DNA of 64,000 nucleotides from Minisyncoccota bacterium (GTDB taxonomy: Bacteria > Patescibacteriota > Minisyncoccia > Phycocordibacterales > UBA9973), in NCBI GenBank assembly GCA_041666045.1, contig JBAYHR010000002.1:18773-82772 (forward strand), written 5' to 3'. How positions within the stretch are numbered: the first letter of the stretch is position 1; the number at the start of each line of letters is the position of its first letter. Shown here piece after piece: positions 3,785-51,865 of the stretch. The notes beneath the pieces were generated by a model. It had not been told where the DNA came from, did not search any database, and saw only the letters and a program-made list of their open reading frames with translations. A program made the position numbers and the translations under genes.

Positions 3785-5785
3785 TTATAACAAGAAAGCA
3801 ACGATAAGCAAAGCTACGATGTTTAGAATTTTAATCATAGGGTTTATTGCTGGTCCGGCTGTATCTTTATAAGGATCTCCAACAGTATCACCAGTAACAG
3901 CTGCCTTGTGAGCATCTCCACCTTTACCTCCAAAGTTTCCACTTTCAATATATTTCTTAGCATTATCCCAAGCTCCACCACCAGAAGTCATAGAGATTGC
4001 TACGAATAATCCTGTGATGATTGATCCAACTAAAAGTCCACCAAGAGCAACTGGTCCAAGCAAGAATCCTACTAAGATTGGAACAAGTACCGGGATAAGA
4101 GCGGGTACAATCATTTGTTTAATAGCGCTTGTTGTAACTATATCTACGCACTTTCCGTATTCTGGTTTTCCTTCACCTGTCATAATTCCTTTTATCTCTC
4201 TAAATTGTCTGCGAACTTCGTCAACAACTTTTCCTGCAGTTTTTCCTACAGCTTCCATACAAAGCGCTCCGAAATAATATGGTAGAAGTCCTCCTATGAA
4301 TAATCCAACGATAACTTTTGGATTACTTAAATCAAATTTCATAACTTCTCCAGTGATAGCTTTTATTTCTTCTGTATATGCTGCGAACAACACAAGTGCT
4401 GCAAGTCCTGCAGAACCGATAGCATAACCTTTTGTGACAGCTTTTGTAGTATTTCCAACTGCGTCTAATGGATCCGTAACATCTCTAACTTCTTTTGGAA
4501 GTTCTGACATTTCTGCGATTCCTCCAGCATTGTCTGTGATTGGTCCATATGCGTCGATAGCTACGATGATTCCTGTCATCGAAAGCATAGACATTGCTGC
4601 TACTGCGATACCATAGAGTCCACCAAATTTATATGTAATTAAAATTCCAGTAACTATTGTTATAAGAGGAAGAGCGGTTGCTTTCATTGAGATAGCGAGT
4701 CCTTGGATAACATTTGTTCCATGTCCTGATAAAGATGCTTTGGCGATAGATTTTACTGGTGAGAATTTTGTTGAAGTAAAATATTCTGTAATAACAACAA
4801 GAGCTCCAGTTACAAAAAGACCTGTAAGGGCACAAATAAATAAATCCATTACAGAATAATCACTGCCGTTGTTAGACATTAATAATTTTGTGATAGGGTA
4901 GAAAGCTATTGCCGCAAGAATTCCTGATGCGATAAGTCCTTTGTATAGCGCGCCCATTATATTATTTTTCTTTCCTAATTTTACAAACCAAGTTCCGATG
5001 ATTGAACAAATAATTGCAATACCTCCTATTGCAAGAGGGTATAATATTGCTCCGCTGAAATTTACGAAAAGAAGTGATCCGAGTAACATTGTCGCTACAG
5101 ATGTAACAGCATATGTTTCAAAAAGATCTGCGGCCATTCCTGCGCAATCTCCAACATTGTCTCCAACATTGTCTGCTATAACTGCAGGGTTTCTTGGGTC
5201 GTCTTCTGGAATTCCAGCTTCAACTTTTCCAACAAGATCTGCTCCTACGTCAGCTGCTTTTGTAAAAATTCCTCCACCTAATCTTGCAAATACAGAAATA
5301 AGAGATGCTCCGAAACCAAGACCGATCAATGCTTTAATATCACCTGTGATTGCGTACAGTGTTGATACTCCCAAAAGAGCAAGTCCTACTACTAGAAGTC
5401 CAGTAACAACTCCTCCATTAAAAGCAACACTAAGAGCTTGCTTCAATCCACTTTTTGCGGCTTCTGTTGTTCTAACATTTGCTCTCACTGATACATTCAT
5501 TCCGATATATCCAGCGAGTGCTGAAAGTACTGCTCCTAGAATAAATCCAATAGCTGAATTAAATCCTAAACCAAACCATAAAACAAAGAAAAGAATTATA
5601 GCTATAACTCCAATAGTTTTGTATTGTCTATTTAAATAAGCTTTTGCTCCTTCTTTGATAGCTTCTGCGATAGCTTGCATTTTTGCATCACCGGCATTCT
5701 TTTTAAGAATTGATTTAGTAAGCAACAATCCATAGATGATAGCTACAATAGAACTAATAATTGCAAACAATAAATATATATTCAT
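3785..5785 (-). CDS. hppA: Membrane-bound proton-translocating pyrophosphatase (V-type H+-PPase)
   Basis: Motifs [41 protein letters not shown] and [18 protein letters not shown]. Polytopic membrane protein of 666 aa. Confidence 0.95.
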
Positions 5786-7651: not shown

Positions 7652-8461
7652 ATGAAAAAGAAAAATTTTTACATAATCTCATTTTTTGCAATCTTAATAA
7701 TTATTACAGGATTTTTGTTTTTGCAAACTAAGGCTGATGCTCAAAGTACTTCTGTCCCTGTTTCTGGCACAGCTGTAATAACTAATATGGGTTATTCTAT
7801 TAGTTTTTCAGGGAATAATGGTGGAACTCTAGGAAATATTCCTTATAATGTTCAATATGATATTTCTAATAATAGTTTTAGCGGTTATGCTTGGTCTCCC
7901 GAATATGGTTGGGTTAATTTTACTGGATTATCTGCTTCAATCCCATCTTTTTCAAATGATACAGAGACTCCAACAAATTGGGCTACTGGAGCAATAAGTT
8001 TAAAAGGTACTAATGGTGGATCTTCTGCAAATATTCCTTATAGTGTAGCTTTTAATTTAGATGGAACTGCTAATTCTGTTAATCATTGGGCTTGGGGTGG
8101 AAATGTAATTGGTTGGATTGATTTTTCTGGAGTTGTAATTACTACTAATATAATTAATGGAACTTGTTCTTATACCCATTATATTTGTGCTTCTGGAACA
8201 AATAGTAATTTTGTGGATGGTACAAGTACTTGGACTTGGGATTGTTTAGGTGCAAACGGTGGTACAAATCAAACAGGTTGCTCCCAGGATAAAAATATCT
8301 GTACTCCTCCTCAAGTGCTTAATTCAAACAATGAATGTGTAGATCCAACGTATTCTAGTTGTAATAATAATTTGGAATTAGATAATGGAGAAACAGGGAT
8401 AGACTGCGGTGGCTTAGATTGTCCTAGTTGTAAAAAACCACCAAAATATATTGAAAATTAA
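7652..8461 (+). CDS. Secreted protein with repeated GW(V/I)(N/D)F motifs and a Cys-rich C-terminus, hypothetical
   Basis: Signal peptide. Repeats YAWSPEYGWVNFTG and HWAWGGNVIGWIDFSG. More than 10 Cys in the last 90 aa. Confidence 0.6.
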   Translation: MKKKNFYIISFFAILIIITGFLFLQTKADAQSTSVPVSGTAVITNMGYSISFSGNNGGTLGNIPYNVQYDISNNSFSGYAWSPEYGWVNFTGLSASIPSFSNDTETPTNWATGAISLKGTNGGSSANIPYSVAFNLDGTANSVNHWAWGGNVIGWIDFSGVVITTNIINGTCSYTHYICASGTNSNFVDGTSTWTWDCLGANGGTNQTGCSQDKNICTPPQVLNSNNECVDPTYSSCNNNLELDNGETGIDCGGLDCPSCKKPPKYIEN

Positions 8462-8489
8462 TTTATTTTATTATTAAATCAAAAAAATT

Positions 8490-8786
8490 ATGAAAAAAAA
8501 TGAATTATTGCAATCAGTAAAAATTATAGTAGTATGTCTTGTGTTTGGTTTAGGAGTAGCCTCCGTATTTTCTGCTGGTCAGTTTAGTTCACCAATTAAA
8601 CCTATTAATGTCGGTACTTCTCCTCAAGTTATGAATAGCAAATTATCAGTAAATTCTTTTTTAGCTACAAATAATACACTTTTTAGCGGAGGAGTTAAGC
8701 TTAATAATCTTGCTGATACTAATGCAACTGAAAATAGACCAATTTGTGCAGATAATACTGGAAAAATAGTTGTTTGTAATCCTTAA
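8490..8786 (+). CDS. Small secreted protein, paralog family A (MKKNELLQSVK... leader, P-x-C-x-DN-x-G...VC motif)
   Basis: The first ~80 nt are nearly identical to the gene at 8877. Signal/anchor sequence plus a conserved Cys pair. Confidence 0.55.
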   Translation: MKKNELLQSVKIIVVCLVFGLGVASVFSAGQFSSPIKPINVGTSPQVMNSKLSVNSFLATNNTLFSGGVKLNNLADTNATENRPICADNTGKIVVCNP

Positions 8787-8876
8787 TTATTTTAGATAAT
8801 TTAAGTTGAAGTATTTAAAAATTATTATTAATTTCCGCCAAAGGCGGATCAGCCTCAGACTGAAATCAAAATTATT

Positions 8877-9977
8877 ATGAAAAAAAATGAATTATTGCAA
8901 TCAGTGAAAGTTATAATATTAGGTCTTGTGCTTAGTGTAGGAATAGCGTTTGTATTTTCTGCTGGGATAGGAACAGGTAGTGTTCCACCAAGCAACAACG
9001 TTCCAGGGCCTATAAATACTGGAACTTTAGATCAGATTAAAAATGGTGGACTGTCAGTAAATGCTTTCTTGGTTGCAGGTGATTCATTTTTTAATGGTTT
9101 AGTTACTCTTGGTAATTTTATAGGAGGTGGGAATAAACCACTTTGCGTAGATAATAGTGGAAATATCACTACTGTTTGTCCTGAAGCGGTTCCTGTTGTA
9201 AATCCTCCTGTTGTTGCATTACCAACAGTAACAACTTCATTAGTTTCAGCAATAACTCAAACTACTGCCACTAGTGGTGGAAACGTAACTTCAGATGGCG
9301 GAGCAATTGTAACAGTATCTGGTATCGTGTGGAATACTTCAGTTGATCCTTCAACAAGTAATAATATTGGTAAAACAACAGATGGATGGGCTATTGGTGG
9401 TCCTTGGTCAAGTAATTTGACTGGATTATCAGCTGGCACTATTTATTTTGTTCGTGCTTATGCGACAAATAGTGTAGGTACAAGTTATGGTGGAAATATT
9501 CAATTTACAACAACCGCAGGTTCTTCTACTCCTACATTGCCAACTGTTGAAACAGTTATACTAGCACAAACTACAATAAACACTTATATGACAGATCCTT
9601 ATCCAATTTTTGGTGTTGCTAATATAACTAACACTGGTGGAGCACCTGTAACACATTATGGTCTTGTACACAGAGGGGGTACAACAGCATTTCCTTGTAG
9701 TATGACTGTTAATACGCCTATTACGCTGAATCAAACGAACGGTTATGGTGGTGTTACTGGTGGTACTGCTGGTTCTAGTGATACAAATTGGCCTATTAAT
9801 CAGAATATTAGTTCGCCTACTGTTATTAATTCACCTAGGGTAGTAATAGGAAGAATAGGGGCATCTGATGGTAATCCTAATAATGGTAGTGGTAATAGTA
9901 CTAGCGGTGTTTGTGTTCGCGCTTATGCCACAAACAGTGTAGGGACAGCTTATGGTAATCTTCTTTATTTTAATTAA
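8877..9977 (+). CDS. Secreted surface protein, paralog family A, with two internal VRAYATNSVGT(S/A)YG repeats
   Basis: Same N-terminus as the 8490 gene. Gly/Thr/Ser/Asn-rich beta-type sequence with two repeated modules. Confidence 0.65.
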   Translation: MKKNELLQSVKVIILGLVLSVGIAFVFSAGIGTGSVPPSNNVPGPINTGTLDQIKNGGLSVNAFLVAGDSFFNGLVTLGNFIGGGNKPLCVDNSGNITTVCPEAVPVVNPPVVALPTVTTSLVSAITQTTATSGGNVTSDGGAIVTVSGIVWNTSVDPSTSNNIGKTTDGWAIGGPWSSNLTGLSAGTIYFVRAYATNSVGTSYGGNIQFTTTAGSSTPTLPTVETVILAQTTINTYMTDPYPIFGVANITNTGGAPVTHYGLVHRGGTTAFPCSMTVNTPITLNQTNGYGGVTGGTAGSSDTNWPINQNISSPTVINSPRVVIGRIGASDGNPNNGSGNSTSGVCVRAYATNSVGTAYGNLLYFN

Positions 9978-10017: not shown

Positions 10018-10048
10018 GCAAAAAATCCCCATTTGGGGATTTTTTGAT
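10018..10048. terminator. Palindromic terminator aaaaaatcccc-atttg-gggattttttga (a variant of the 42403/43659 palindrome)
   Basis: Perfect stem with flanking A-run and T-run. Confidence 0.7.
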
Positions 10049-14974: not shown

Positions 14975-16480
14975 ATGCGAGACAAAATTTTTTATTTATC
15001 TTGTTTTGGGTTTGAAATAGGCGTGTTAATCAGTTCATTCTTTTTTGTAAATTTATATTTAATTACGTTAATCAGTATTGTCTTCTTAGGTTTGTTTTTA
15101 TTTTTTTTATTTGTCTCAAAATTAAAATGGTGTATACTTTTTTGTATTTTTATTTTAACTATATCATTAGGAATTTTTAGGTTTCATAATGCAGATAAAC
15201 CAGCTCCTTATGTTTTTGAATCTATAGTTGGAGAGAAAGTTAATTTTAGTGGATTGATAATTGATGAAGTGGATGAAAGAGAAAACAATCAGAAATTAAC
15301 AGTCGAAGTTTTGTCTCCTCAAGGTCTTGACTTGGACTCTTTAAAGGCAAAGCCTTTTCCCGCAAAAACAAAAATTCTTTTAACTGCAGATTTTGAACAA
15401 GAATTTAAATACGGGGATACCATAAATTTTTTTGGAAAACTTGAAAAACCTGAGAATTTTTACACAAACACTGGCAAACTTTTTGATTACATTAATTATT
15501 TACATAAAGATGGGATTTTTTATTTAATAAAAAATCCAACTACGGAAATTATATCTCGTGGTGGTGGAAGTTTTGTAAAAAGAAAACTGTTTTCTTTTAA
15601 AGATAAATTTTTAGATAAAATAAATTTTGTTATACCAGAGCCAGAATCTTTGCTTATGGGTGGACTTATTTTAGGTGAACGATCTTCTTTTGACGAATCA
15701 ATGCGTCAGGCTTTTGTAGATACTGGAACGATACACATTATAGCTTTGTCTGGTTACAATGTGACAATTGTCGCAGAGTGGATTATGAAAATATTTTCTT
15801 TTTTTCCTCGTAATATTTCTTTTAGTTTTGGTATTTTTGGTATTTTACTTTTTGTTGTGATGGCTGGTGGCGCTTCTACTGCTGTGCGAGCAGGAGTAAT
15901 GGCAACCTTAGCGCTTATTGCGCGCGCGACAGGGAGGGATTATGATGTCGCGCGCGCACTTGTGTTTGCTGGTGTAATAATGACGATTCTCAATCCTTTT
16001 GTTTTAGCTTTTGATGTGTCTTTTCAACTTTCTTTTATTGCTACGATTGCTGTGATATTTTTTGCCCCTAAAATGGAAAAATATTTTATGTGGATTACAA
16101 AAAGATTTGGTTTACGCGATGTTGTGTGTATAACTTTTTCTGCTTATCTTTTTGTTTTGCCTTTTATACTTTATAAAATGGGAAATTTGTCTATCGTTGC
16201 ACTGCCAGCAAATATTTTAATTCTTCCATTTATTCCTATTACTATGATTTTTGGTTTTATTACAGGTTTTATAGGACTCATTTGGTCAGTATTTTCAATT
16301 CCTTTTGGTTTTGTTTCTTATTTATTTTTACATTATGAATTATCTATAATTTCCTTTTTCTCACATTTGTCATTTGCGTCTTTTGCAATTCCAAATTTTC
16401 CGTTATTAATTACATTAATAGTTTACACTTATTTTATTTACAGACTTTTTGGAAAAAATATTAAAAAGTTTTTTAACTAA
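14975..16480 (+). CDS. comEC: ComEC/Rec2 competence-channel membrane domain (first part of a split comEC)
   Basis: Polytopic membrane protein with the ComEC signature ...GTIHIIALSGYNVTIV... Confidence 0.8.
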   Translation: MRDKIFYLSCFGFEIGVLISSFFFVNLYLITLISIVFLGLFLFFLFVSKLKWCILFCIFILTISLGIFRFHNADKPAPYVFESIVGEKVNFSGLIIDEVDERENNQKLTVEVLSPQGLDLDSLKAKPFPAKTKILLTADFEQEFKYGDTINFFGKLEKPENFYTNTGKLFDYINYLHKDGIFYLIKNPTTEIISRGGGSFVKRKLFSFKDKFLDKINFVIPEPESLLMGGLILGERSSFDESMRQAFVDTGTIHIIALSGYNVTIVAEWIMKIFSFFPRNISFSFGIFGILLFVVMAGGASTAVRAGVMATLALIARATGRDYDVARALVFAGVIMTILNPFVLAFDVSFQLSFIATIAVIFFAPKMEKYFMWITKRFGLRDVVCITFSAYLFVLPFILYKMGNLSIVALPANILILPFIPITMIFGFITGFIGLIWSVFSIPFGFVSYLFLHYELSIISFFSHLSFASFAIPNFPLLITLIVYTYFIYRLFGKNIKKFFN

Positions 16481-16556
16481 AAATCAAAATATAAAACTTT
16501 TCTGGCGGACAAGACGAAGCCAGTGCCCGCAGGCGAAAAGTTTTATATTTTGATTT
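16481..16556. repeat. Structured element copy A: 21-bp perfect AT-rich stem enclosing a 34-nt GC-rich core (ctggcggacaagacgaagccagtgcccgcaggcg), followed by a T-run
   Basis: Read directly from the sequence. A second copy at 48181-48261 has covarying stems. Confidence 0.8.
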
Positions 16557-16589
16557 TTTATATAAGTGTTTAGATGTTAATATTATCTT

Positions 16590-36868: not shown

Positions 36869-37945
36869 ATGAAGGAAAAAGATAATGTTTCATCTATTTC
36901 AATATCAAACGGGTCAATAATCCGCGTATTTTTAATCGTGCTTGGATTCTTTTTGATTTATGTTTTGCGAGATATGGTGCTCGTTATTCTTACTTCTATC
37001 GTGATAGCTTCTTTTGTTGAGTCCGCAATTCCTTATTTTAGAAAAATAAGAATGGGTAGAGTTATGGGGGTGGCAATTTTATACATTGTTTCAATTAGTG
37101 TATTAGCAGGATTATTTTATCTTTTTGCTCCTCTTTTAATAACAGAAATTTATAATTTTGCTGTATTTATTTCTTCTTATGCTCCGGGGGTTGATTTTTT
37201 GAATTATTTCCAAAATGATGTATTTTCTGGCGCTAAAGATATTGTTGCGAATTTATCTGGTAATTTTTCACTTGATACTTTGCTTTTAGCATCAAAAGCA
37301 TTTATTTCAAATCTTTCAGGTGGATTCTTTACGACAGTATCAGTAGCATTCGGCAGTATTTTCAACTTTGTATTAATTATTATTATTTCTTTTTATCTTT
37401 CAATTCAAGAAAAGGGAATAGAGAATTTTTTGCGAATTATTTTGCCTATAAAACACGAAGATTATATTGTTAATTTATGGGAACGTTCAAGTAGAAAAAT
37501 TGGTCTTTGGATGAAAGGTCAAATGCTTCTTGGTATTTTGGTTGGAGTTTTGATTTATCTAGTGCTTTCACTTTTAGGAATTCAATACGCGCTTCTTTTA
37601 GCTATAATTGCCGGAATAATGGAAATGGTGCCTTATGGTATTTTGATTGCTCTTGTGCCAGCAATTTCCTTTTCTTTTCTTTCAGGAGGAATGTCTAGCG
37701 CATTGATGGTTGGTGGAGCATATTTAATAATTCACCAATTTGAAGTTTTCTTATTTAATCCTCTTATTGTAAAGAGAGTCGTAGGGCTTTCTCCACTTGT
37801 GGTAATTTTGTCTGTTTTGATAGGTTTTGAGCTTGCTGGTTTCTGGGGAATAGTGCTCGCTATTCCAACTGCAGTGGTCCTTATGGAATTTTTGGGTGAT
37901 ATAGAAAAGGATAAGATTTTCAGTAAAATAAAAAATGAAAAATAG
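36869..37945 (+). CDS. AI-2E family transporter-like membrane protein (UPF0118)
   Basis: Eight or more TM helices. The C-terminal pattern ...GLSPLVVILSVLIGFELAGFWGIVLAIP... is typical of PF01594. Confidence 0.65.
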   Translation: MKEKDNVSSISISNGSIIRVFLIVLGFFLIYVLRDMVLVILTSIVIASFVESAIPYFRKIRMGRVMGVAILYIVSISVLAGLFYLFAPLLITEIYNFAVFISSYAPGVDFLNYFQNDVFSGAKDIVANLSGNFSLDTLLLASKAFISNLSGGFFTTVSVAFGSIFNFVLIIIISFYLSIQEKGIENFLRIILPIKHEDYIVNLWERSSRKIGLWMKGQMLLGILVGVLIYLVLSLLGIQYALLLAIIAGIMEMVPYGILIALVPAISFSFLSGGMSSALMVGGAYLIIHQFEVFLFNPLIVKRVVGLSPLVVILSVLIGFELAGFWGIVLAIPTAVVLMEFLGDIEKDKIFSKIKNEK

Positions 37946-39374
37946 TTTTTATATTACAACGACTCTCCCGTATGTTAATTCAGATCCACATGTTGGATTT
38001 GCAATGGAATTTATTCGTGCTGACGTTATAGCTCGATTTAAAAAATTAAATGGTTATGAAGTATTTTTTAATACTGGTACTGATGAGCATGGTCAGAAAC
38101 TTTTTGATTCTGCAAAAAAAGAAGGAAAGGAAGTTCAAGTCTATGTGGATGAATATGCAGAAAAATTTAGAGATTTGAAAAATGTTTTAGGAATTTCAGA
38201 AGATGTTCATTTTGTTCGTACCACAGATGAGCATCATATAAAGTCCGCGCAGGAATTTTGGAAAATTTGTAAAGAGAATGGATATATTTATAAAAAAACC
38301 TATCAGGCAAAATATTGTGTAGGTTGTGAGCTCAATAAGACTGATTCTGAATTAGTAGATGGCGAGTGTCCTATACATCCTGGACGAAAATTAGAATTGA
38401 TTGATGAAGAGAATTATTTTTTTAAGTTTTCAGAATTTCAAAAACCACTTTTAGATTTTTATGTAAAGAATCCTAATTTTGTTGTGCCAGATTTTCGTTT
38501 TCACGAAATAAAAGCTTTTATTGGAGCTGGTCTTGATGATTTTTCAATTTCTCGTTTGAAATCAAAAATGTCATGGGGTGTACCCGTACCTGATGATGAT
38601 AAACATGTTATGTATGTTTGGTTTGATGCGCTTGTTAATTATATTTCTACATTGGGATGGCCAGAGAACAAAGAACAATTTGAAAAGTTTTGGGTGAATG
38701 GAACTCCTGTTCAATATTGTGGCAAAGATAATCTACGCCAACAAACTGCAATGTGGCAAGCAATGCTTATGTCTGTAAAATTACCAAATACGCATCAAGT
38801 TATTGTAGATGGTTTTATAACAGGCGATGGGGGAATAAAAATGTCTAAATCTATTGGCAATGTGGTAAATCCAGTTGAAATAGTAAAAGAATATGGCACA
38901 GATGCATTAAGATATTTTTTACTTCGTGAAGTATCTAGCTTTGAAGATAGTCCCTTTACCATAGAGCGATTTAAAGAAGCTTATAATTCAGGACTTGCAA
39001 ATGGGCTTGGTAATTTATCTTCACGGATTCTTACACTTTCGGAAAAACATTTGGATAAATGTCCAGAGATTCCTGAAAAATTAGATTTTACAGAATATTT
39101 TAAAATATATGAAGATTTTGATATTAAAAAAGTTATGGATTATATTTGGGATAAAATACAAAATCTTGATAAAAAAATTCAGGAAACTGAACCATTTAAG
39201 GTTATAAAAATTGATGAACAAAAAGGAAAAGAAATGATTAAAGAATTAGTTTTAGAATTATATACAATTGCACGAATGTTAAATCCTGTGATGCCAGAAA
39301 CAAATGAAAAATTAAAAAAATTAATTAAAGAAAATAAAAAACCAGAACAACCTTTATTTTTAAGAAAAGAATAG
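37935..39374 (+). CDS. metG: Methionyl-tRNA synthetase (short, no C-terminal tRNA-binding domain)
   Basis: PYVNSDPHVGF (HIGH-region), Cys-x2-Cys knuckle CVGCE...CPIH, KMSKS. Confidence 0.95.
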   Translation: MKNSFYITTTLPYVNSDPHVGFAMEFIRADVIARFKKLNGYEVFFNTGTDEHGQKLFDSAKKEGKEVQVYVDEYAEKFRDLKNVLGISEDVHFVRTTDEHHIKSAQEFWKICKENGYIYKKTYQAKYCVGCELNKTDSELVDGECPIHPGRKLELIDEENYFFKFSEFQKPLLDFYVKNPNFVVPDFRFHEIKAFIGAGLDDFSISRLKSKMSWGVPVPDDDKHVMYVWFDALVNYISTLGWPENKEQFEKFWVNGTPVQYCGKDNLRQQTAMWQAMLMSVKLPNTHQVIVDGFITGDGGIKMSKSIGNVVNPVEIVKEYGTDALRYFLLREVSSFEDSPFTIERFKEAYNSGLANGLGNLSSRILTLSEKHLDKCPEIPEKLDFTEYFKIYEDFDIKKVMDYIWDKIQNLDKKIQETEPFKVIKIDEQKGKEMIKELVLELYTIARMLNPVMPETNEKLKKLIKENKKPEQPLFLRKE

Positions 39375-39377
39375 AAT

Positions 39378-39494
39378 TTGAATTTTCCCCTCCTTGTGGA
39401 GGAGGGGTGCCTAAAGGGCGGGGTGGTGATTTATTAAATTTAGAATTACCACCCCCAACCCCCTCCTTGAAAAGGAGGGGAGTTAAAATACAAA
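39378..39494. repeat. GC-rich three-hairpin repeat, copy 1 (SD/anti-SD-like hairpins cccctcctt-N4-aaggagggg flanking a GGGTGGT...ACCACCC hairpin)
   Basis: 100% identical over ~114 nt to 40005-40118. Confidence 0.9.
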
Positions 39495-39499
39495 ATACA

Positions 39500-39859
39500 A
39501 TGAAAACCATTCATAATATAAAAAAATTATTTTATAGAAGAAAAGAATTAAGAAACAATAGTACTCCTCAAGAAATTTTATTGTGGTTGAAATTAAAAAA
39601 TTCTCAGCTTGGTTTTAAATTTCGTCGTCAGCACAGCATAGGTGGATATATTGCTGATTTTTATTGTCCTTCTAAAAAATTAGTTATTGAAATTGATGGT
39701 TCACAGCATTTTAAAGAAGAAGCAAAAAAATATGATGATATAAGAAGTAATTATTTTGAAGGTCTTGATATAAAAGTTTTGCGTTTTACAAATGGCGAGA
39801 TAAATACTAATATGAGTGGAGTGTTGTTAAAAATAATAACACAATTAAGTAAAAAATAA
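39500..39859 (+). CDS. DUF559-family (Vsr-like PD-(D/E)xK) endonuclease-domain protein (the 39407 upstream extension is a repeat artefact)
   Basis: RRQHSIGGYIADFYCPSKKLVIEIDGSQH...VLRFTNGEI is a typical DUF559 signature. Confidence 0.8.
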   Translation: MKTIHNIKKLFYRRKELRNNSTPQEILLWLKLKNSQLGFKFRRQHSIGGYIADFYCPSKKLVIEIDGSQHFKEEAKKYDDIRSNYFEGLDIKVLRFTNGEINTNMSGVLLKIITQLSKK

Positions 39860-40004
39860 ATTTATGTCAAAGTATGAAAATATTGTAGAAGTTGTTGGTT
39901 CACCAATAATTATAAATAAAATAAAGTTTGATATTGAAACTTTTGATTTTAATAAAAATAATAAATAATTTTTTATGTCAAAATATATTTACAAAAGTAA
40001 AAGT

Positions 40005-40118
40005 GTCGAATTTTCCCCTCCTTGTGGAGGAGGGGTGCCTAAAGGGCGGGGTGGTGATTTATTAAATTTAGAATTACCACCCCCAACCCCCTCCTTGAAA
40101 AGGAGGGGAGTTAAAATA
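40005..40118. repeat. GC-rich three-hairpin repeat, copy 2 (identical to copy 1). It ends 2 nt before the tatD ATG.
   Basis: Direct sequence identity with 39381-39494. Confidence 0.9.
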
Positions 40119-40120
40119 CA

Positions 40121-49810: not shown

Positions 49811-51865
49811 ATGAGTAATTTATTAAAATCAAAATTCTTTCTTGGAGTTATGATCGTAACAGTTATGTTCGCAGGCGTTCTTGCTTTCACAAGCTCAGCT
49901 TCTGCATCTGATTGTTCACTCGGTTCAACTACCTTGAAATATGGTTCAACAGGAACTGCCGTTACATGTCTTCAAGAGACATTAGGTCTAGACAGTTCTT
50001 ATCCAAGAGGATACTTTGGAAATGTAACAAAGAACTTAGTTATAGCTTTTCAATCTGCTAACAGCTTAACAGCTGATGGTTTGGTTGGACCTATGACAAA
50101 AGCAGCTCTTTCTGTTGCTCCAACTACAACAACAACTACTACAACGACAACTACTACAACAGCAGATCTTTGTCCAAATGGAAACACTTTGGCAAGTAAC
50201 TGTTCTTTAGCTCCTGCAACAACTACAACAGCAGAAGCTCTTTGTCCAAATGGTAATACAGTTGCAAGTAATTGTGCTATCTTGCCAGCAACCACTACAA
50301 CAACAGTAAATGCTAATGGTTTGGCAGGAACATTTGGTACAATTTCAACTATTACACAACTTTCTGCATACAATAATGAAGAAGTTGGTGATAGTGCAAA
50401 AGATGTAAAAATAATGGGTCTTGATCTTACTGCTTCAGCAGATGGAGATATTGCATTACAGTCAATCAAATTGACTTTTGATGCTACAGGTTATGGATCA
50501 GGAGATTCAACTCGTATTACTGACTTCTTAAGTTCTGTTTCTGTATGGATGGGAACAACTAAAGTTGCTACAGCAAGTACAGCTGATTTTACCAAAGATG
50601 ACACTGGTATTTATTCAAAGACTATTGCTCTTAGCAATGCTATCGTTCGCGCAGATAAGACTGAAAAGTTTTATGTTTCTGTTGATGCAATAGGTAATAT
50701 GGATTCAGGAGATATTAACTCTGATTCATGGACAGTTGGTATCAATAGTATTCGTTACGTAGACGGTTCTGGTGTTGTCACAACTGATGCTGACATAATG
50801 CCAGCAGCTCTTGAATGGAATGCAGCTGGAGATGGAGTAGGAATCGCTTTCGTAACATTCTCAACTTCAGTAGATACTGAATTGAAGATTTCACTTGATT
50901 CAGCTTCACCAGTAGCAGGTATTTCTACAGTAAATGCAACTAACAATACTGATAATGTTGTTCTTGCAAAAGGTAAAATGAAATTAGAAGGAACATCTGA
51001 CATTTGGTTAGATGAACTTCCATTCTTGTTCACAACAAATGCAACAAACGCTGATGAGGTTTCATCAACTGTTTATCTTACTATCGGTGGAAACACATAT
51101 AGTGAATCAATGACAGCAACAGCTGGAACAACAGAGGCTATTACATTTGATAACCTTGATCTAGATATCGTAGCTGGTTCTACAACAACATTTTCTGTTT
51201 TAGCAGATATCAATGATATTGAAACTACAGTATTTGATGAAGGAGATTATTTGACTGTAGACTTAGATGCTACAAGACGAGCTTTGATGGTTGTTGAGAA
51301 CTCAGAAGGTACTCAATTAACTGATGGAACAGAAGTATCTGGTGTTATGTCTGGTAATAAGCAATACTTCTATTCTATTGCTCCAACAATATCAGTTTCT
51401 TCAGTTTCTATTACCCCAGTTGATAATGGTTCATCTTCTCCAGCTTCTGCAATAGCTAAAATGACACTTAAGATTACAGCTGATGGTGGAACTATTTACC
51501 TAAACGGTGATGATGAAACTACTGCAGCAAATGAATTTATTACATTAGCTGTAGATGGTGGTACTGTCACAAGTACAACTGTTGGTTCATACACATTTAC
51601 TCCAAGTGGCACATATACTGTCACAAATAATGGTGCAAATGATGAATATTACACCATTAATGATGGTGATGTAATGTATGTTCTTATAGAAGCCGTAATT
51701 TCTCAAGGCACTGCTGGACCAGCTGTACTTGCTGGTTTGAAAGGAACAGCAATTCTATTTGATACTACCGTTCCTGATGGTACAACTGCTCCAGTTAATA
51801 CAATGAACTGGACAACATTGACTGATATTCTAAAATCAGGCAAAACTGTTGTAACCGGCGCTTAG
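49811..51865 (+). CDS. Large surface protein: signal peptide, PG-binding-1-like domain, poly-Thr linker, duplicated LCPNGNT(L/V)ASNC module, long Thr/Ser/Gly/Asp-rich beta region. An S-layer/cell-envelope candidate.
   Basis: KYGSTGTAVTCLQETLGL...ADGLVGPMTKAAL matches the peptidoglycan-binding domain pattern. A 590-nt leader lies upstream and strong terminators downstream. Confidence 0.7.
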   Translation: MSNLLKSKFFLGVMIVTVMFAGVLAFTSSASASDCSLGSTTLKYGSTGTAVTCLQETLGLDSSYPRGYFGNVTKNLVIAFQSANSLTADGLVGPMTKAALSVAPTTTTTTTTTTTTTADLCPNGNTLASNCSLAPATTTTAEALCPNGNTVASNCAILPATTTTTVNANGLAGTFGTISTITQLSAYNNEEVGDSAKDVKIMGLDLTASADGDIALQSIKLTFDATGYGSGDSTRITDFLSSVSVWMGTTKVATASTADFTKDDTGIYSKTIALSNAIVRADKTEKFYVSVDAIGNMDSGDINSDSWTVGINSIRYVDGSGVVTTDADIMPAALEWNAAGDGVGIAFVTFSTSVDTELKISLDSASPVAGISTVNATNNTDNVVLAKGKMKLEGTSDIWLDELPFLFTTNATNADEVSSTVYLTIGGNTYSESMTATAGTTEAITFDNLDLDIVAGSTTTFSVLADINDIETTVFDEGDYLTVDLDATRRALMVVENSEGTQLTDGTEVSGVMSGNKQYFYSIAPTISVSSVSITPVDNGSSSPASAIAKMTLKITADGGTIYLNGDDETTAANEFITLAVDGGTVTSTTVGSYTFTPSGTYTVTNNGANDEYYTINDGDVMYVLIEAVISQGTAGPAVLAGLKGTAILFDTTVPDGTTAPVNTMNWTTLTDILKSGKTVVTGA

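Follow-up and report, generated by a model that had tools for sequence, protein, structure and literature searches.

BoxC, PIT and TM motifs have been known since the 1990s and number thousands of occurrences in bacterial genomes; the BoxC/PIT motifs are reportedly due to the work of Bachellier in the 1990s and of Hoyne and Maher in 2000. They have no known function or mobilizing activity, and neither mobility genes nor remnants of mobility activities have ever been found near the Escherichia coli copies (Holder 2015, PMC4666352). The same authors demonstrated a triplex in isolated strands by CD/NMR—for the E. coli sequence only—and report no stable triplex in vivo. Motif loci vary greatly from one E. 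coli strain to another, and the motifs were proposed to be fragile, recombinogenic sites (Holder 2015, PMC4666352).

We report here a specific linkage, which is new, between motifs of this kind and genes of the DUF559 family; the reports on the E. coli motifs do not mention it. The DUF559 family is very large and counts E. coli YcjD among its members. We know of no DUF559 protein with a known biochemical activity on triplex-motif DNA, and of no Vsr-type protein that acts as a transposase. The titles and abstracts of papers found to mention DUF559 seem to contain no nuclease assay of a DUF559 protein, and our search for DUF559 in connection with repeats or mobility found no description of this linkage; searches with the exact element sequence strings gave nothing relevant, and neither did the matches listed for MITEs in CPR. 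Vsr, the Vsr-fold homing endonuclease I-Bth0305I (PDB 3r3p) and DUF559 have been placed in one group (Steczkiewicz 2012, PMC3424549), and DUF559 proteins are 14-fold enriched among predicted inversion targets (Milman 2023, PMC9881135).

The DNA analyzed here, the window, is a 64,000-nt stretch from a Minisyncoccota bacterium. In it, metG (37935..39374, + strand; Pfam tRNA-synt_1g, E = 1.7e-92), the product of which is identical to a protein recorded as methionine--tRNA ligase of Candidatus Paceibacterota, ends with a stop codon at 39372–39374, and tatD, for a TatD-family hydrolase (40121..40966, +; TatD_DNase, E = 8.9e-77), begins with an ATG at 40121. The coordinates and gene calls in the preliminary description of the 746-nt interval between these two housekeeping genes (39375–40120) thus hold, and so does its endonuclease gene: an intact ORF of 119 aa from the ATG at 39500 to 39859 (+) that matches PF04480 (E = 6.5e-31; 106.9 bits against a curated cut-off of 20.6) and, by sequence, PDB 3hrl (E = 2e-17). 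The window has no other DUF559 gene. Among 13 homologues, E25, W29, F41-R42-R43-Q44, D53, F54, E64, D66, G67, H70, D79, R82 and R95 are invariant; the acidic/His core—D53, E64, D66, H70 and D79, which from the Vsr fold we take to be the catalytic positions—is therefore intact.

The AT-rich spacer behind the gene contains the two mini-ORFs described before, one of 34 aa at 39864..39968 (+) that has no Pfam match, and another, 39975–40124, that runs into the second repeat. Related loci, denoted below by numbers with the prefix L, have genes of 130, 141 or 148 aa in place of the first, which is probably a remnant at the relatives' variable-gene position. When the spacer was compared with the cargo genes of relatives, only its last 49 nt gave a match, to L128: the segment 39961..40007 (+), with the mini-ORF start MSKYIYKSKS, is 86% identical over 49 nt to L128 854–900 (ATGCCGAAATATATTTATAAAAG..). 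This start resembles those of tatD genes (ATGCCCAAATATATTGATATT in L003, MPKYFDIH in L129), and the segment is probably a relic of the 5' end of an older tatD.

The two repeats, here termed element E, lie at 39380..39493 (copy A, +) and 40008..40121 (copy B, +). As had been noted, they agree letter for letter, here over 114 nt; the offset between them is 628, and the last base of copy B is the A of the tatD ATG. Each consists of two inverted triplex motifs and short flanks (GAATTT.. and ..TAAAATACAA); a second GAATTT (39374–39379) precedes copy A and a second AAATACA (39493–39499) follows it. The left motif of copy A (39387..39428, +), found by a strict triplex-motif scan, starts with CCCCTCCTT (39387–95), followed by the loop GTG, the purine strand GAGGAGGGG (39399–407), a second loop that is itself a small hairpin, TGCCTAAAGGGC (39408–19), and the third strand GGGGTGGTG (39420–28). 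Set against the reversed purine strand, the third strand gives 9/9 allowed triads (G·G, T·A). The right motif (39446..39480, −; strict match 39447–39480) also has 9/9 triads and reads CCCCTCCTT-TTC-AAGGAGGGG(G)-TTG-GGGGTGGTAA on the minus strand, its second loop, TTG, being of the canonical 3 nt as in E. coli TM type A. The strict motifs of copy B are at 40015–40055 (+) and 40075–40108 (−).

Each repeat had been described as three hairpins. There are four stems, because an additional GCC..GGC hairpin (39408–39419) lies between hairpin 1 and the GGGGTGGT arm; hairpin 1, thought to have an exact AAGGAGGGG arm, is CCCCTCCTT-GTG-GAGGAGGGG; and the arms of the supposed middle hairpin, GGGGTGGT and ACCACCCC, are the third strands of the two inverted motifs. 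The repeat is better read, we believe, as two inverted potential intrastrand-triplex motifs. It is no chance feature, since CCCCTCCTT occurs eight times in the window where 0.18 occurrences are expected, and the 126-nt repeat region folds at −63.5 kcal/mol (z = −7). Both strands fold alike. The sense strand is the more stable in 11 of 18 copies of E, with a mean difference of −0.9 kcal/mol, so these 18 copies have none of the strand asymmetry that would suggest a function as sense-strand RNA or ssDNA. A coding role for the copies in the window is ruled out by the indels between them. Of the 18 copies, 15 keep one antisense frame open, which partly explains the orientation of the intragenic copies described below.

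By their design, the window repeats belong to the BoxC/PIT/TM family known from E. coli. They have pyrimidine/purine hairpins with first loops in the short range of 3–6 nt (CCCCTCCTT-GTG-GAGGAGGGG and CCCCTCCTT-GAA-AAGGAGGGG), and a mirrored G/T third block (G·G:C, A·A:T or T·A:T) that gives 9/9 triads in either half of copy A and of copy B, and likewise in a further copy, C. The second loop is 3 nt in the right half; in the left half it is the 12-nt mini-hairpin TGCCTAAAGGGC, beyond the ITxF limit of 1–6 nt. The E. coli consensus, CCCTCNCCC N3-6 GGGNGAGGG N3 GGGNGAGGG, is not matched, and the window stems, CCCCTCCTT/AAGGAGGGG/GGGGTGGT, are those of another sequence subfamily; next to the DUF559 genes of L063 and L140, stems like those of E. 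coli are found. Across subfamilies, all three strands covary (CCCC/GGGG/GGGG versus CTCC/GGAG/GAGG among the 18 copies of E), and the many further variants of the purine stem all have a mirror to match. Of 1645 unique windows with a perfect 8-bp Y/R hairpin (a hairpin counts more than once where its windows overlap), 694 have a mirrored third strand that scores a perfect 8/8 within 25 nt; in shuffled sequences, the mean best third-strand score is 5.1.

Copy C raises the count of repeats from the two first described to three. It is diverged, lies at about 44318..44419 (+) between efp (43700–44278, −) and recA (44420–45454, −), and like the others is intergenic. Mean column identity in the three-copy alignment is 85%, and the middle loop of copy C is 8 nt shorter. 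Its purine strand, AAGGGGGAG, forms 9/9 triads with the third strand GAGGGGGTA, so the third strand has followed the change in the purine strand; the pyrimidine strand retains a T (G.T). In the relative L063, a DUF559 gene flanked by triplex motifs occupies this same efp–recA junction.

Linkage between gene and motif extends far beyond the window. Of 80 DUF559 loci, selected from metagenomes by protein as the best-scoring of at least 560 relatives and belonging to one subfamily, 66 (82%) have the gene no more than 200 nt from a perfect triplex motif, and 37 have one on both sides. Because of this selection, other parts of PF04480 may not show the linkage, and 14 of the 80 loci lack a perfect motif in the gene's vicinity. 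Near DUF559, motifs number 4.07/kb, which is 57 times the background of 0.072/kb in the remaining sequence of these loci. The flanking motifs are inverted (+,−) in 25 loci and (−,+) in seven; the window, with its gene between two complete copies of E, has the minority arrangement. Looked at from the side of the motif, 118 loci selected for it include 12 with a DUF559 homologue no more than 105 nt away, and some 90% of them have no such gene within 8 kb. Among 150 ORFs neighboring motifs, DUF559 ranks first of all Pfam families, and the 25 most frequent neighbor families include no transposase and no other nuclease. In E. coli K-12, which has 23 motifs and the DUF559 gene ycjD, one motif, TM_ECO no. 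9, adjoins ycjD, about 170 nt downstream.

DUF559 and its flanking motifs form a compact unit of about 430–500 bp that is found in many phyla. Usually, a symmetric inverted pair of motifs, both of the same subfamily, brackets the gene at fixed short distances. Homology between units in unrelated contexts stops 1–5 nt outside the left motif and 3–21 nt outside the right one, and the motif sequences are common to several phyla, down to exact 20-mers. In related Paceibacterota, DUF559 genes are found at metG–tatD, at efp–recA, between proS and an M16 peptidase gene, near recA, and between an exonuclease gene and rmuC. Neither the 15 units inspected nor the occupied and empty junctions compared had a target-site duplication of the kind that had been looked to as a sign of insertion; the AGCT at some unit ends is palindromic, and hence ambiguous as a duplication. 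A BLAST search of plasmids with the 114-nt repeat produced no match, possibly on account of the low-complexity filter.

Comparison of the metG–tatD junction among relatives clarifies how the window came by its arrangement. The junction is empty in the closest ones, with a gap of 1–5 nt in L003 and L005, whose MetG proteins are 85% and 84% identical to that of the window, and of 12 nt in L116. L006 has a single E there, and no DUF559 gene. L129 and L130 have metG, E, DUF559 and a variable gene, and only the one E. L128 has the same order as the window—element, DUF559, another segment, relic, element—but its two elements have diverged, and the window E joins the 5' half of L128 E2 to the 3' half of L128 E1, as a chimera of the two types. 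The variable genes at this junction include CmpB-like, deaminase-like and other ORFs. The idea that the gene is of a selfish kind is supported: DUF559 of this clade behaves like such a gene, being patchily distributed and traveling with the repeats. The perfection of the direct repeats, taken at first as a sign of recent insertion, reads differently: with diverged repeats in the same layout in L128, the 100% identity of copies A and B would most likely reflect recent homogenization.

Element E also occurs inside genes. In CPR relatives it lies in-frame in ligA, tsaD, the RNase R gene, uvrA, an amidase gene, ftsK, mnmA, recG, infB and atpD, and wherever the 20-mer of an intragenic copy runs antisense to the gene, as it does in 17 copies, the frame is the same, ..PLLxKEGVGGG...

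We think it rather probable that these observations belong together in the following way. Each 114-nt E is a palindrome of two inverted potential intrastrand-triplex motifs of the BoxC/PIT/TM family. DUF559 of this clade would normally reside between two inverted motifs, as a unit that turns up in different places, genomes and phyla; E, which has the same ends as the unit and no gene, would spread by itself, including in-frame into CPR protein genes. In the window, one DUF559 gene sits between two complete copies of E at metG–tatD, and older flanking copies, originally diverged, would have been homogenized by gene conversion, or by excision and reintegration through the repeats. We infer that the Vsr-like nuclease recognizes or nicks folded motif DNA, and that the resulting breaks could drive the copying of unit and E by repair or recombination, a role like the service that RAYT is supposed to perform for REP/REPIN. 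The existence of dispersed, gene-less copies besides the flanked gene suggests that the nuclease acts in trans. More tentatively, and with the odds somewhat against us, DUF559 of the YcjD type could be the missing protein partner of BoxC/PIT/TM motifs altogether: a cross-phylum selfish nuclease–repeat system, analogous to RAYT–REPIN, with a Vsr fold and triplex-forming ends.

Other explanations must be weighed against this. The preliminary description saw a cassette newly inserted between metG and tatD, which made or brought two perfect direct repeats. The empty junction in L003, L005 and L116 stands in its favor, as do the identity of the repeats and the short tandem duplications, GAATTT and AAATACA, at the ends of copy A, but we consider it improbable: E occurs alone in L006 and with DUF559 as a single copy in L129 and L130, in L128 the two-element layout, with its homologous spacer, comes with copies that have diverged, and the two L128 types are combined in the chimeric E of the window. 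Moreover, a 114-nt target duplication is the product of no insertion mechanism known to us. That the duplicated repeat arose by mis-assembly of the metagenome we regard as exceedingly improbable. Short contigs (L002, L128) do break at the repeat; however, a second assembly record, ENA ERZ27249449 k141_1506125, agrees with the window in all of 3,453 nt that include both copies (possibly from the same reads), L002, from another sequencing run (Logan SRR6484324), starts inside copy B and continues into tatD, and L128 has the same layout in a different organism. A role at the level of RNA—as terminator, stabilizer, or a means of supplying or sequestering the ribosome-binding sites of DUF559 and tatD—is suggested by the strong predicted folds, by AAGGAGG upstream of both ATGs (it does, as described before, end 14 nt ahead of that of tatD), by the roughly 10 nt that separate GGAG(C) from the DUF559 ATG, a spacing conserved in L128, L129 and L131, and by the T-run that often follows the hairpin in proteobacterial copies. 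Yet SD-like motifs precede only 4–6 of the 51 long ORFs in the window, relatives have none at tatD, and the purine strand of the triplex motif yields AAGGAGG as a by-product; given the rarity of SD motifs in this genome, the supply of a ribosome-binding site by the repeat, an earlier suggestion, is unlikely. Nor are the repeats generic terminators, a possibility also raised at the outset: the window copies have no T-run, and the genome's own terminator-like hairpins are different, of the form AAAATCCCCCAATTGGGGGATTTTTT. Rfam gave no gathering-score match in the whole window and 19 related loci (39300–40200 gave only noise at E up to 10), a tRNA/tmRNA scan found none, both strands fold equally well, and copies lie in both orientations relative to genes and also within ORFs. 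RNA does not form purine-motif triplexes, and no promoter or terminator activity was seen with PIT elements (cited by Holder 2015, PMC4666352). An RNA-level role thus seems very improbable to us.

Two further explanations accept the linkage and assign it another cause. Motifs that are fragile and recombinogenic might simply gather accessory genes, the nuclease having no functional relation to them, and both the hypervariable motif loci of E. coli strains and the different genes found at metG–tatD in different relatives agree with this. Such passive association is unlikely, in our opinion, given that DUF559 is the sole nuclease family among the most frequent motif neighbors, that 82% of the clade's DUF559 genes lie no farther than 200 nt from a motif, for the most part inside a symmetric inverted pair, and that the units end where the motifs end and carry flanking motifs of one subfamily. 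Alternatively, DUF559 might benefit the host as a structure-specific repair nuclease by resolving replication blocks at triplex or hairpin motifs, co-inherited with them but not mobilizing them. Vsr, of the same fold, is a repair nickase; the catalytic-type residues are conserved in proteins 36% to 80% identical to that of the window, which points to purifying selection; and PIT elements block polymerase in vitro (cited by Holder 2015, PMC4666352). A repair function would leave unexplained, however, the bracketing by inverted pairs, the coincidence of unit boundaries with motif ends, the different junctions occupied in close relatives, and the absence of the gene from the closest ones, and we give it little credence.

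If such a nuclease–repeat system is indeed at work, its gene-less derivatives would spread through genomes, cause the instability of motif loci, and colonize even essential genes of CPR bacteria in-frame. The physical linkage joins two open questions, that of BoxC/PIT/TM and that of DUF559, into one that can be tested in E. coli K-12. CPR/Patescibacteria tolerate E inside essential proteins, and intragenic copies matter for the annotation of CPR genes and for how reduced genomes cope with selfish DNA.

How does this arrangement compare with the systems already known? With the BoxC/PIT/TM motifs, E shares the C-rich stem, the complementary purine stem, the G/T third strand that mirrors it, the 3-nt second loop (in its right half), the inverted pairing, dispersal in many bacteria, and loci that vary between relatives. 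It differs from the E. coli motifs in having stems of CCCCTCCTT/AAGGAGGGG/GGGGTGGT rather than CCCTCNCCC..GGGNGAGGG, and a 12-nt hairpin for a second loop in the left half; the host of the window is an AT-rich CPR genome, and while the E. coli motifs are reported to be always intergenic, CPR relatives have in-frame intragenic copies. Such copies recall the Rickettsia palindromic elements (RPE), palindromes of some 90–115 nt that lie in-frame in housekeeping genes and leave the ORF unbroken; E is unrelated to these in sequence, its hosts belong to another phylum, and it has a linked protein partner, DUF559. MITEs and their parent insertion sequences are similar in that the gene-carrying unit and the short gene-less derivative—here the DUF559 unit and E, with repeats of some 31–44 nt—have terminal inverted repeats in common, and in occurring patchily and in multiple copies. 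Their transposases, in contrast, are of known classes; DUF559, the only linked protein here, is no known transposase, its units have no detected target-site duplication, and their ends are triplex-type mirror repeats.

Vsr and I-Bth0305I are of the same PD-(D/E)xK subgroup, and free-standing selfish behavior and the existence of occupied and empty alleles are further likenesses; DUF559, however, has neither an intron or intein host nor an adjacent cytosine methyltransferase. Homing endonucleases have one conserved recognition site, whereas DUF559, although empty and occupied alleles are seen, is found at five junctions of unrelated sequence. The loop of E may be an alternative homing target, which would fit the form of the gene inside an inverted pair; an origin of E by deletion fits equally well. 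A parallel in layout is REP/REPIN–RAYT, where one small nuclease-type gene likewise lies between inverted short palindromic repeats that are also dispersed without it. RAYT (TnpA_REP) is an HUH/Y1 transposase related to IS200/IS605, whereas the protein flanked by the repeats here is DUF559, of the Vsr-like PD-(D/E)xK fold, and REP sequences are lineage-specific, whereas triplex motifs cross phyla as exact 20-mers. The layouts, then, are analogous, and the proteins are of different kinds.

The metG and tatD genes of the window, the one ending at 39374 and the other starting at 40121, are separated by two identical copies of a 114-nt palindromic element, E (copy A, 39380–39493; copy B, 40008–40121), and between these lies an intact DUF559 gene (39500–39859; PF04480, E=6.5e-31; PDB 3hrl, E=2e-17). 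A 148-nt AT-rich spacer, between the gene and copy B, holds two mini-ORFs that begin MSKY. The preliminary description had this arrangement right. The three hairpins it saw in each repeat are there too, but it missed a small GCC..GGC hairpin, and the arms GGGGTGGT / ACCACCCC are more than a stem. A diverged third copy (copy C, ~44318–44419) lies between efp and recA; all three E copies in the window are intergenic. The window is AT-rich (~30% GC) and belongs to a contig of 108 kb (JGI 3300037810 Ga0376277_0001250) from a Candidatus Paceibacterota (CPR) bacterium; CCCCTCCTT occurs in it eight times, against 0.18 expected, with copy C accounting for two of the eight. A second assembly record, not necessarily from separate reads, agrees with the window at every base of a 3,453-nt span that takes in both flanking copies, and in a contig of another sequencing run (Logan SRR6484324, L002) copy B is again joined to tatD.

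Both halves of E are built of three blocks, as a potential intrastrand triplex is. On the + strand the left half reads CCCCTCCTT-GTG-GAGGAGGGG-[TGCCTAAAGGGC]-GGGGTGGTG, and on the - strand the right half reads CCCCTCCTT-TTC-AAGGAGGGG(G)-TTG-GGGGTGGTAA. The third block of either half is the mirror of its purine stem, and nine of nine triads are of allowed kinds (G*G, T*A). The three blocks covary. In copy C the purine stem has become AAGGGGGAG and the third strand has changed along with it (GAGGGGGTA), the pyrimidine strand still having T, and among 18 aligned CPR copies the blocks of the CCCC/GGGG/GGGG and CTCC/GGAG/GAGG types keep company with zero exceptions. Across all loci examined there are 1645 unique perfect pyrimidine/purine hairpin windows of 8 bp, with overlapping ones in the same hairpin counted singly, and for 694 of them a third strand that is a perfect mirror (8/8) lies no more than 25 nt away; the mean best score in shuffles is 5.1. 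Purine stems differ widely among these loci, each with its own mirror. The two strands of E fold equally well, which fits a DNA-level palindrome. We hold this anatomy with high confidence, and it places the window repeats in a known but unexplained family, BoxC/PIT/'TM', found in E. coli and >260 proteobacterial genomes; E. coli K-12, too, has inverted pairs, five of them (Holder et al. 2015, PMC4666352). That study reported no function, promoter activity or terminator activity for the motif and found no mobility functions nearby, and its motif loci were more variable. Because its stems are not those of the E. coli consensus, and the second loop of its left half is 12 nt, the window repeat is a variant of the family; an Rfam scan gave zero family matches.

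The motif requires a purine strand, and this accounts for the AAGGAGG before tatD, which had been proposed to supply or sequester translation signals. The case for such a role is weak: SD-like motifs precede only 4–6 of the 51 long ORFs (≥150 aa) in the window, and relatives (loci L003 and L005) have no SD at tatD. In several window genes a TATAAT-like hexamer stands just a few bases upstream of the ATG, suggesting that their mRNAs are leaderless or have very short leaders. Nor do the repeats look like generic terminators; the terminator-like hairpins of the window differ from them in sequence, and a bidirectional one, AAAAAATCCCCCAATTGGGGGATTTTTT, present in three copies (10020–10048, 42398–42435 and 43656–43689), appears to be the usual terminator type of the genome, rather than E.

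Other repeats occur in the window as well. An unrelated structured family (16479–16564 and 48181–48266; 86 nt, 81% identical) has a long AT stem around a GC-rich core (..CTTTTCTGGCGGACAAGACGAAGCCAGTGCCCGCAGGCGAAAAG..), and the changes between its copies look compensatory. A 72-nt tandem repeat in a coding region (50147–50290, 76% identical) encodes threonine-rich, cysteine-containing units, and a 103-nt direct repeat (8476–8578 and 8863–8965; 86% identical, 387 nt apart) spans two gene starts (ATGAAAAAAAATGAATTATTGCA) and likely represents tandem paralogues.

Among relatives, the metG–tatD junction is polymorphic. It is empty in L003 and L005 (MetG 85% and 84% identical), with 1–5 nt between the genes, and in L116, with a 12-nt gap; L004 (83%) has a CmpB-like gene there. 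L006 (78%, C-terminal part) has one E without DUF559, in homologous flanks (..GAATTT[E]..AAAATACAA..ATG). L129 (68%) and L130 (72%) have a single E, in the order metG, E, DUF559 and a variable gene, for an unknown protein of 141 aa and a deaminase-like one of 148 aa. L128, its DUF559 87% identical, has E1, DUF559, a 130-aa ORF, a spacer 86% identical to window 39961–40009, and E2. E1 and E2 have diverged, so the two-repeat layout predates the window genome. The idea of a recently inserted cassette is thus only partly right: the empty junctions agree with it, but the preliminary description had itself taken diverged repeats in a like-arranged relative as a sign of age, and that is what L128 has. 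In its 5' half the window E matches L128-E2 exactly, and in its 3' half, GAAAA loop region included, it matches L128-E1 exactly; the metG-proximal E of relatives is always of CTCC/GAGG type, and the 5' half of copy A is of CCCC/GGGG type. The 100% identity of the window copies most likely reflects recent homogenization, which could have proceeded by gene conversion, or by excision and reintegration through the repeats. The MSKYIY mini-ORF resembles the tatD start of L003, L128 and L129 (MPKYI..) and is probably what remains of an older one. For L003 and L005 against the window, TatD identity is 68% and MetG identity 84–85%; the sequence downstream of the junction may have another history than that upstream.

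Similar units, each a DUF559 gene with its flanking motifs, occupy other junctions, all within one conserved gene block of related genomes. L063 has one at efp–recA, the site of copy C in the window; L137 and L144 have one at proS–M16 peptidase, a junction that has no gap in the window. In L135 a unit lies near recA, and at exonuclease–rmuC both L053 and L058 have one, the two oriented in opposite directions. Differences of this kind among relatives are direct evidence of gains and losses at many sites. At 5660–6460 of L063 the DUF559 gene is flanked by motifs of a different, E. coli-like subfamily (CCCCTCTCC/GGAGAGGGG/GGGGTGAGG); further motif copies in tandem come after it, and then a run of Ns that marks a gap in the assembly.

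The finding, then, is real, and broader than first described. Scanning one genome per species for exact matches to CCACCCCCARCCCCCTCCTT found at least 118 loci; in 12 of these a DUF559 homologue lies within 105 nt, and DUF559 is the top Pfam family among 150 ORFs neighboring the motif, whose 25 commonest families include neither a transposase nor any other nuclease. Approached from the protein, by scanning metagenomes with a DUF559 alignment, the best 80 (45–87% identity) of at least 560 relatives have a perfect motif, strictly defined, within 200 nt in 66 cases and motifs on both sides in 37. Motif density near DUF559 is 4.07/kb, 57 times the 0.072/kb of these loci elsewhere. In the commonest form (25/37) the two motifs are an inverted pair and turn their third strands toward the gene—motif(+), 25–60 nt, ATG DUF559 stop, 10–50 nt, motif(-)—434–498 bp long, in hosts of 29–65% GC. 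The ends of E are the ends of this unit, with a short loop in place of the gene. In the rarer inverse form (7/37) it is the outer sides of two motifs that face the gene; the window gene is of this kind, each flank being a complete E. Within a unit the two motifs are of one sequence subfamily, and homology across unrelated contexts ends 1–5 nt beyond the left motif and 3–21 nt beyond the right. We are highly confident that the linkage is specific, and moderately so that the unit is a discrete mobile one. The linkage appears to be unreported; we found no description of it in the literature searched. Independently, DUF559 proteins have been listed as 14-fold enriched among predicted inversion targets (Milman et al. 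2023, PMC9881135). In E. coli K-12, ycjD, the only DUF559 gene annotated in the stretch examined, has TM_ECO no. 9 (in the numbering of Holder et al.) ~170 nt downstream. The ycjD stop codon carries a motif relic, and 3' of it comes a duplicate of its own last ~45 nt, then TM_ECO no. 9 (L208, NC_000913.3 1351040–1351830), which suggests an old rearrangement at the motif.

Matches listed in the scan come from CPR lineages, Sphingomonadales, Cytophagales, Geobacteraceae, Desulfobulbales, Zixibacteria, Ignavibacteria, an Enterobacterales MAG, and others. The full two-motif E recurs in CPR genomes, where it also sits in-frame inside essential housekeeping genes: ligA, tsaD, uvrA, ftsK, mnmA, recG, infB, atpD, an amidase gene and the RNase R gene (loci L015, L017, L023, L042, L043, L049, L054, L056, L074, L081, L082, L107, L109-L112 and L116). 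In the RNase R gene it occupies the identical site in four genomes, two with half an element only. All 17 intragenic copies whose 20-mer is antisense to the gene share one frame, which stays open in 15 of 18 E copies; the encoded peptide (..PLLxKEGVGGGNSK..GTPPQKGGE..) leaves ORF and Pfam domains intact. This colonization, too, appears unreported in the literature searched.

Several arrays and stray occurrences were seen in passing. A Desulfocapsa MAG has motif-containing tandem arrays of 190-nt period, four times (L078, 2909–3500), and, on another contig, of 30–31-nt period (L066, 1930–2010 and 3270–3319); a 49-nt-period array adjoins a DUF559 gene in L174, downstream of 3297. In IMG/VR the exact motif 20-mer is in four viral contigs only (L124–L127). 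The MetG of L006 has a short Gly/Pro/Ser-rich insertion (~7800–7870; ..WPDEKGKTPSASGISPLAGGENSESNFQKYW..), which may be another in-frame GC-rich element; the window MetG (..WPENKEQFEKFW..) is without it.

How might such units spread? The Vsr-fold DUF559 nuclease would recognize their folded ends—hairpin, triplex or cruciform—and nick there, and break repair or recombination would then copy the unit and, in trans, E without the gene. That DUF559 is the enzyme acting on the motifs is quite possible, though we stop short of calling it probable. A homing-type process, in which the gene invades the loop of a pre-existing E, is a possible alternative and would yield an identical static picture. A transposon in the strict sense is disfavored, since target-site duplications, which the preliminary description had suggested looking for, were found neither at units nor between occupied and empty junctions, and no Vsr-type transposase is known.

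For the action proposed here, of DUF559 on its motifs, the closest functional analogy is that of RAYT with REP/REPIN. The E. coli motifs are reported to be 'always intergenic', whereas CPR copies of E occur inside genes, and in this in-frame insertion they resemble the RPE of Rickettsia.
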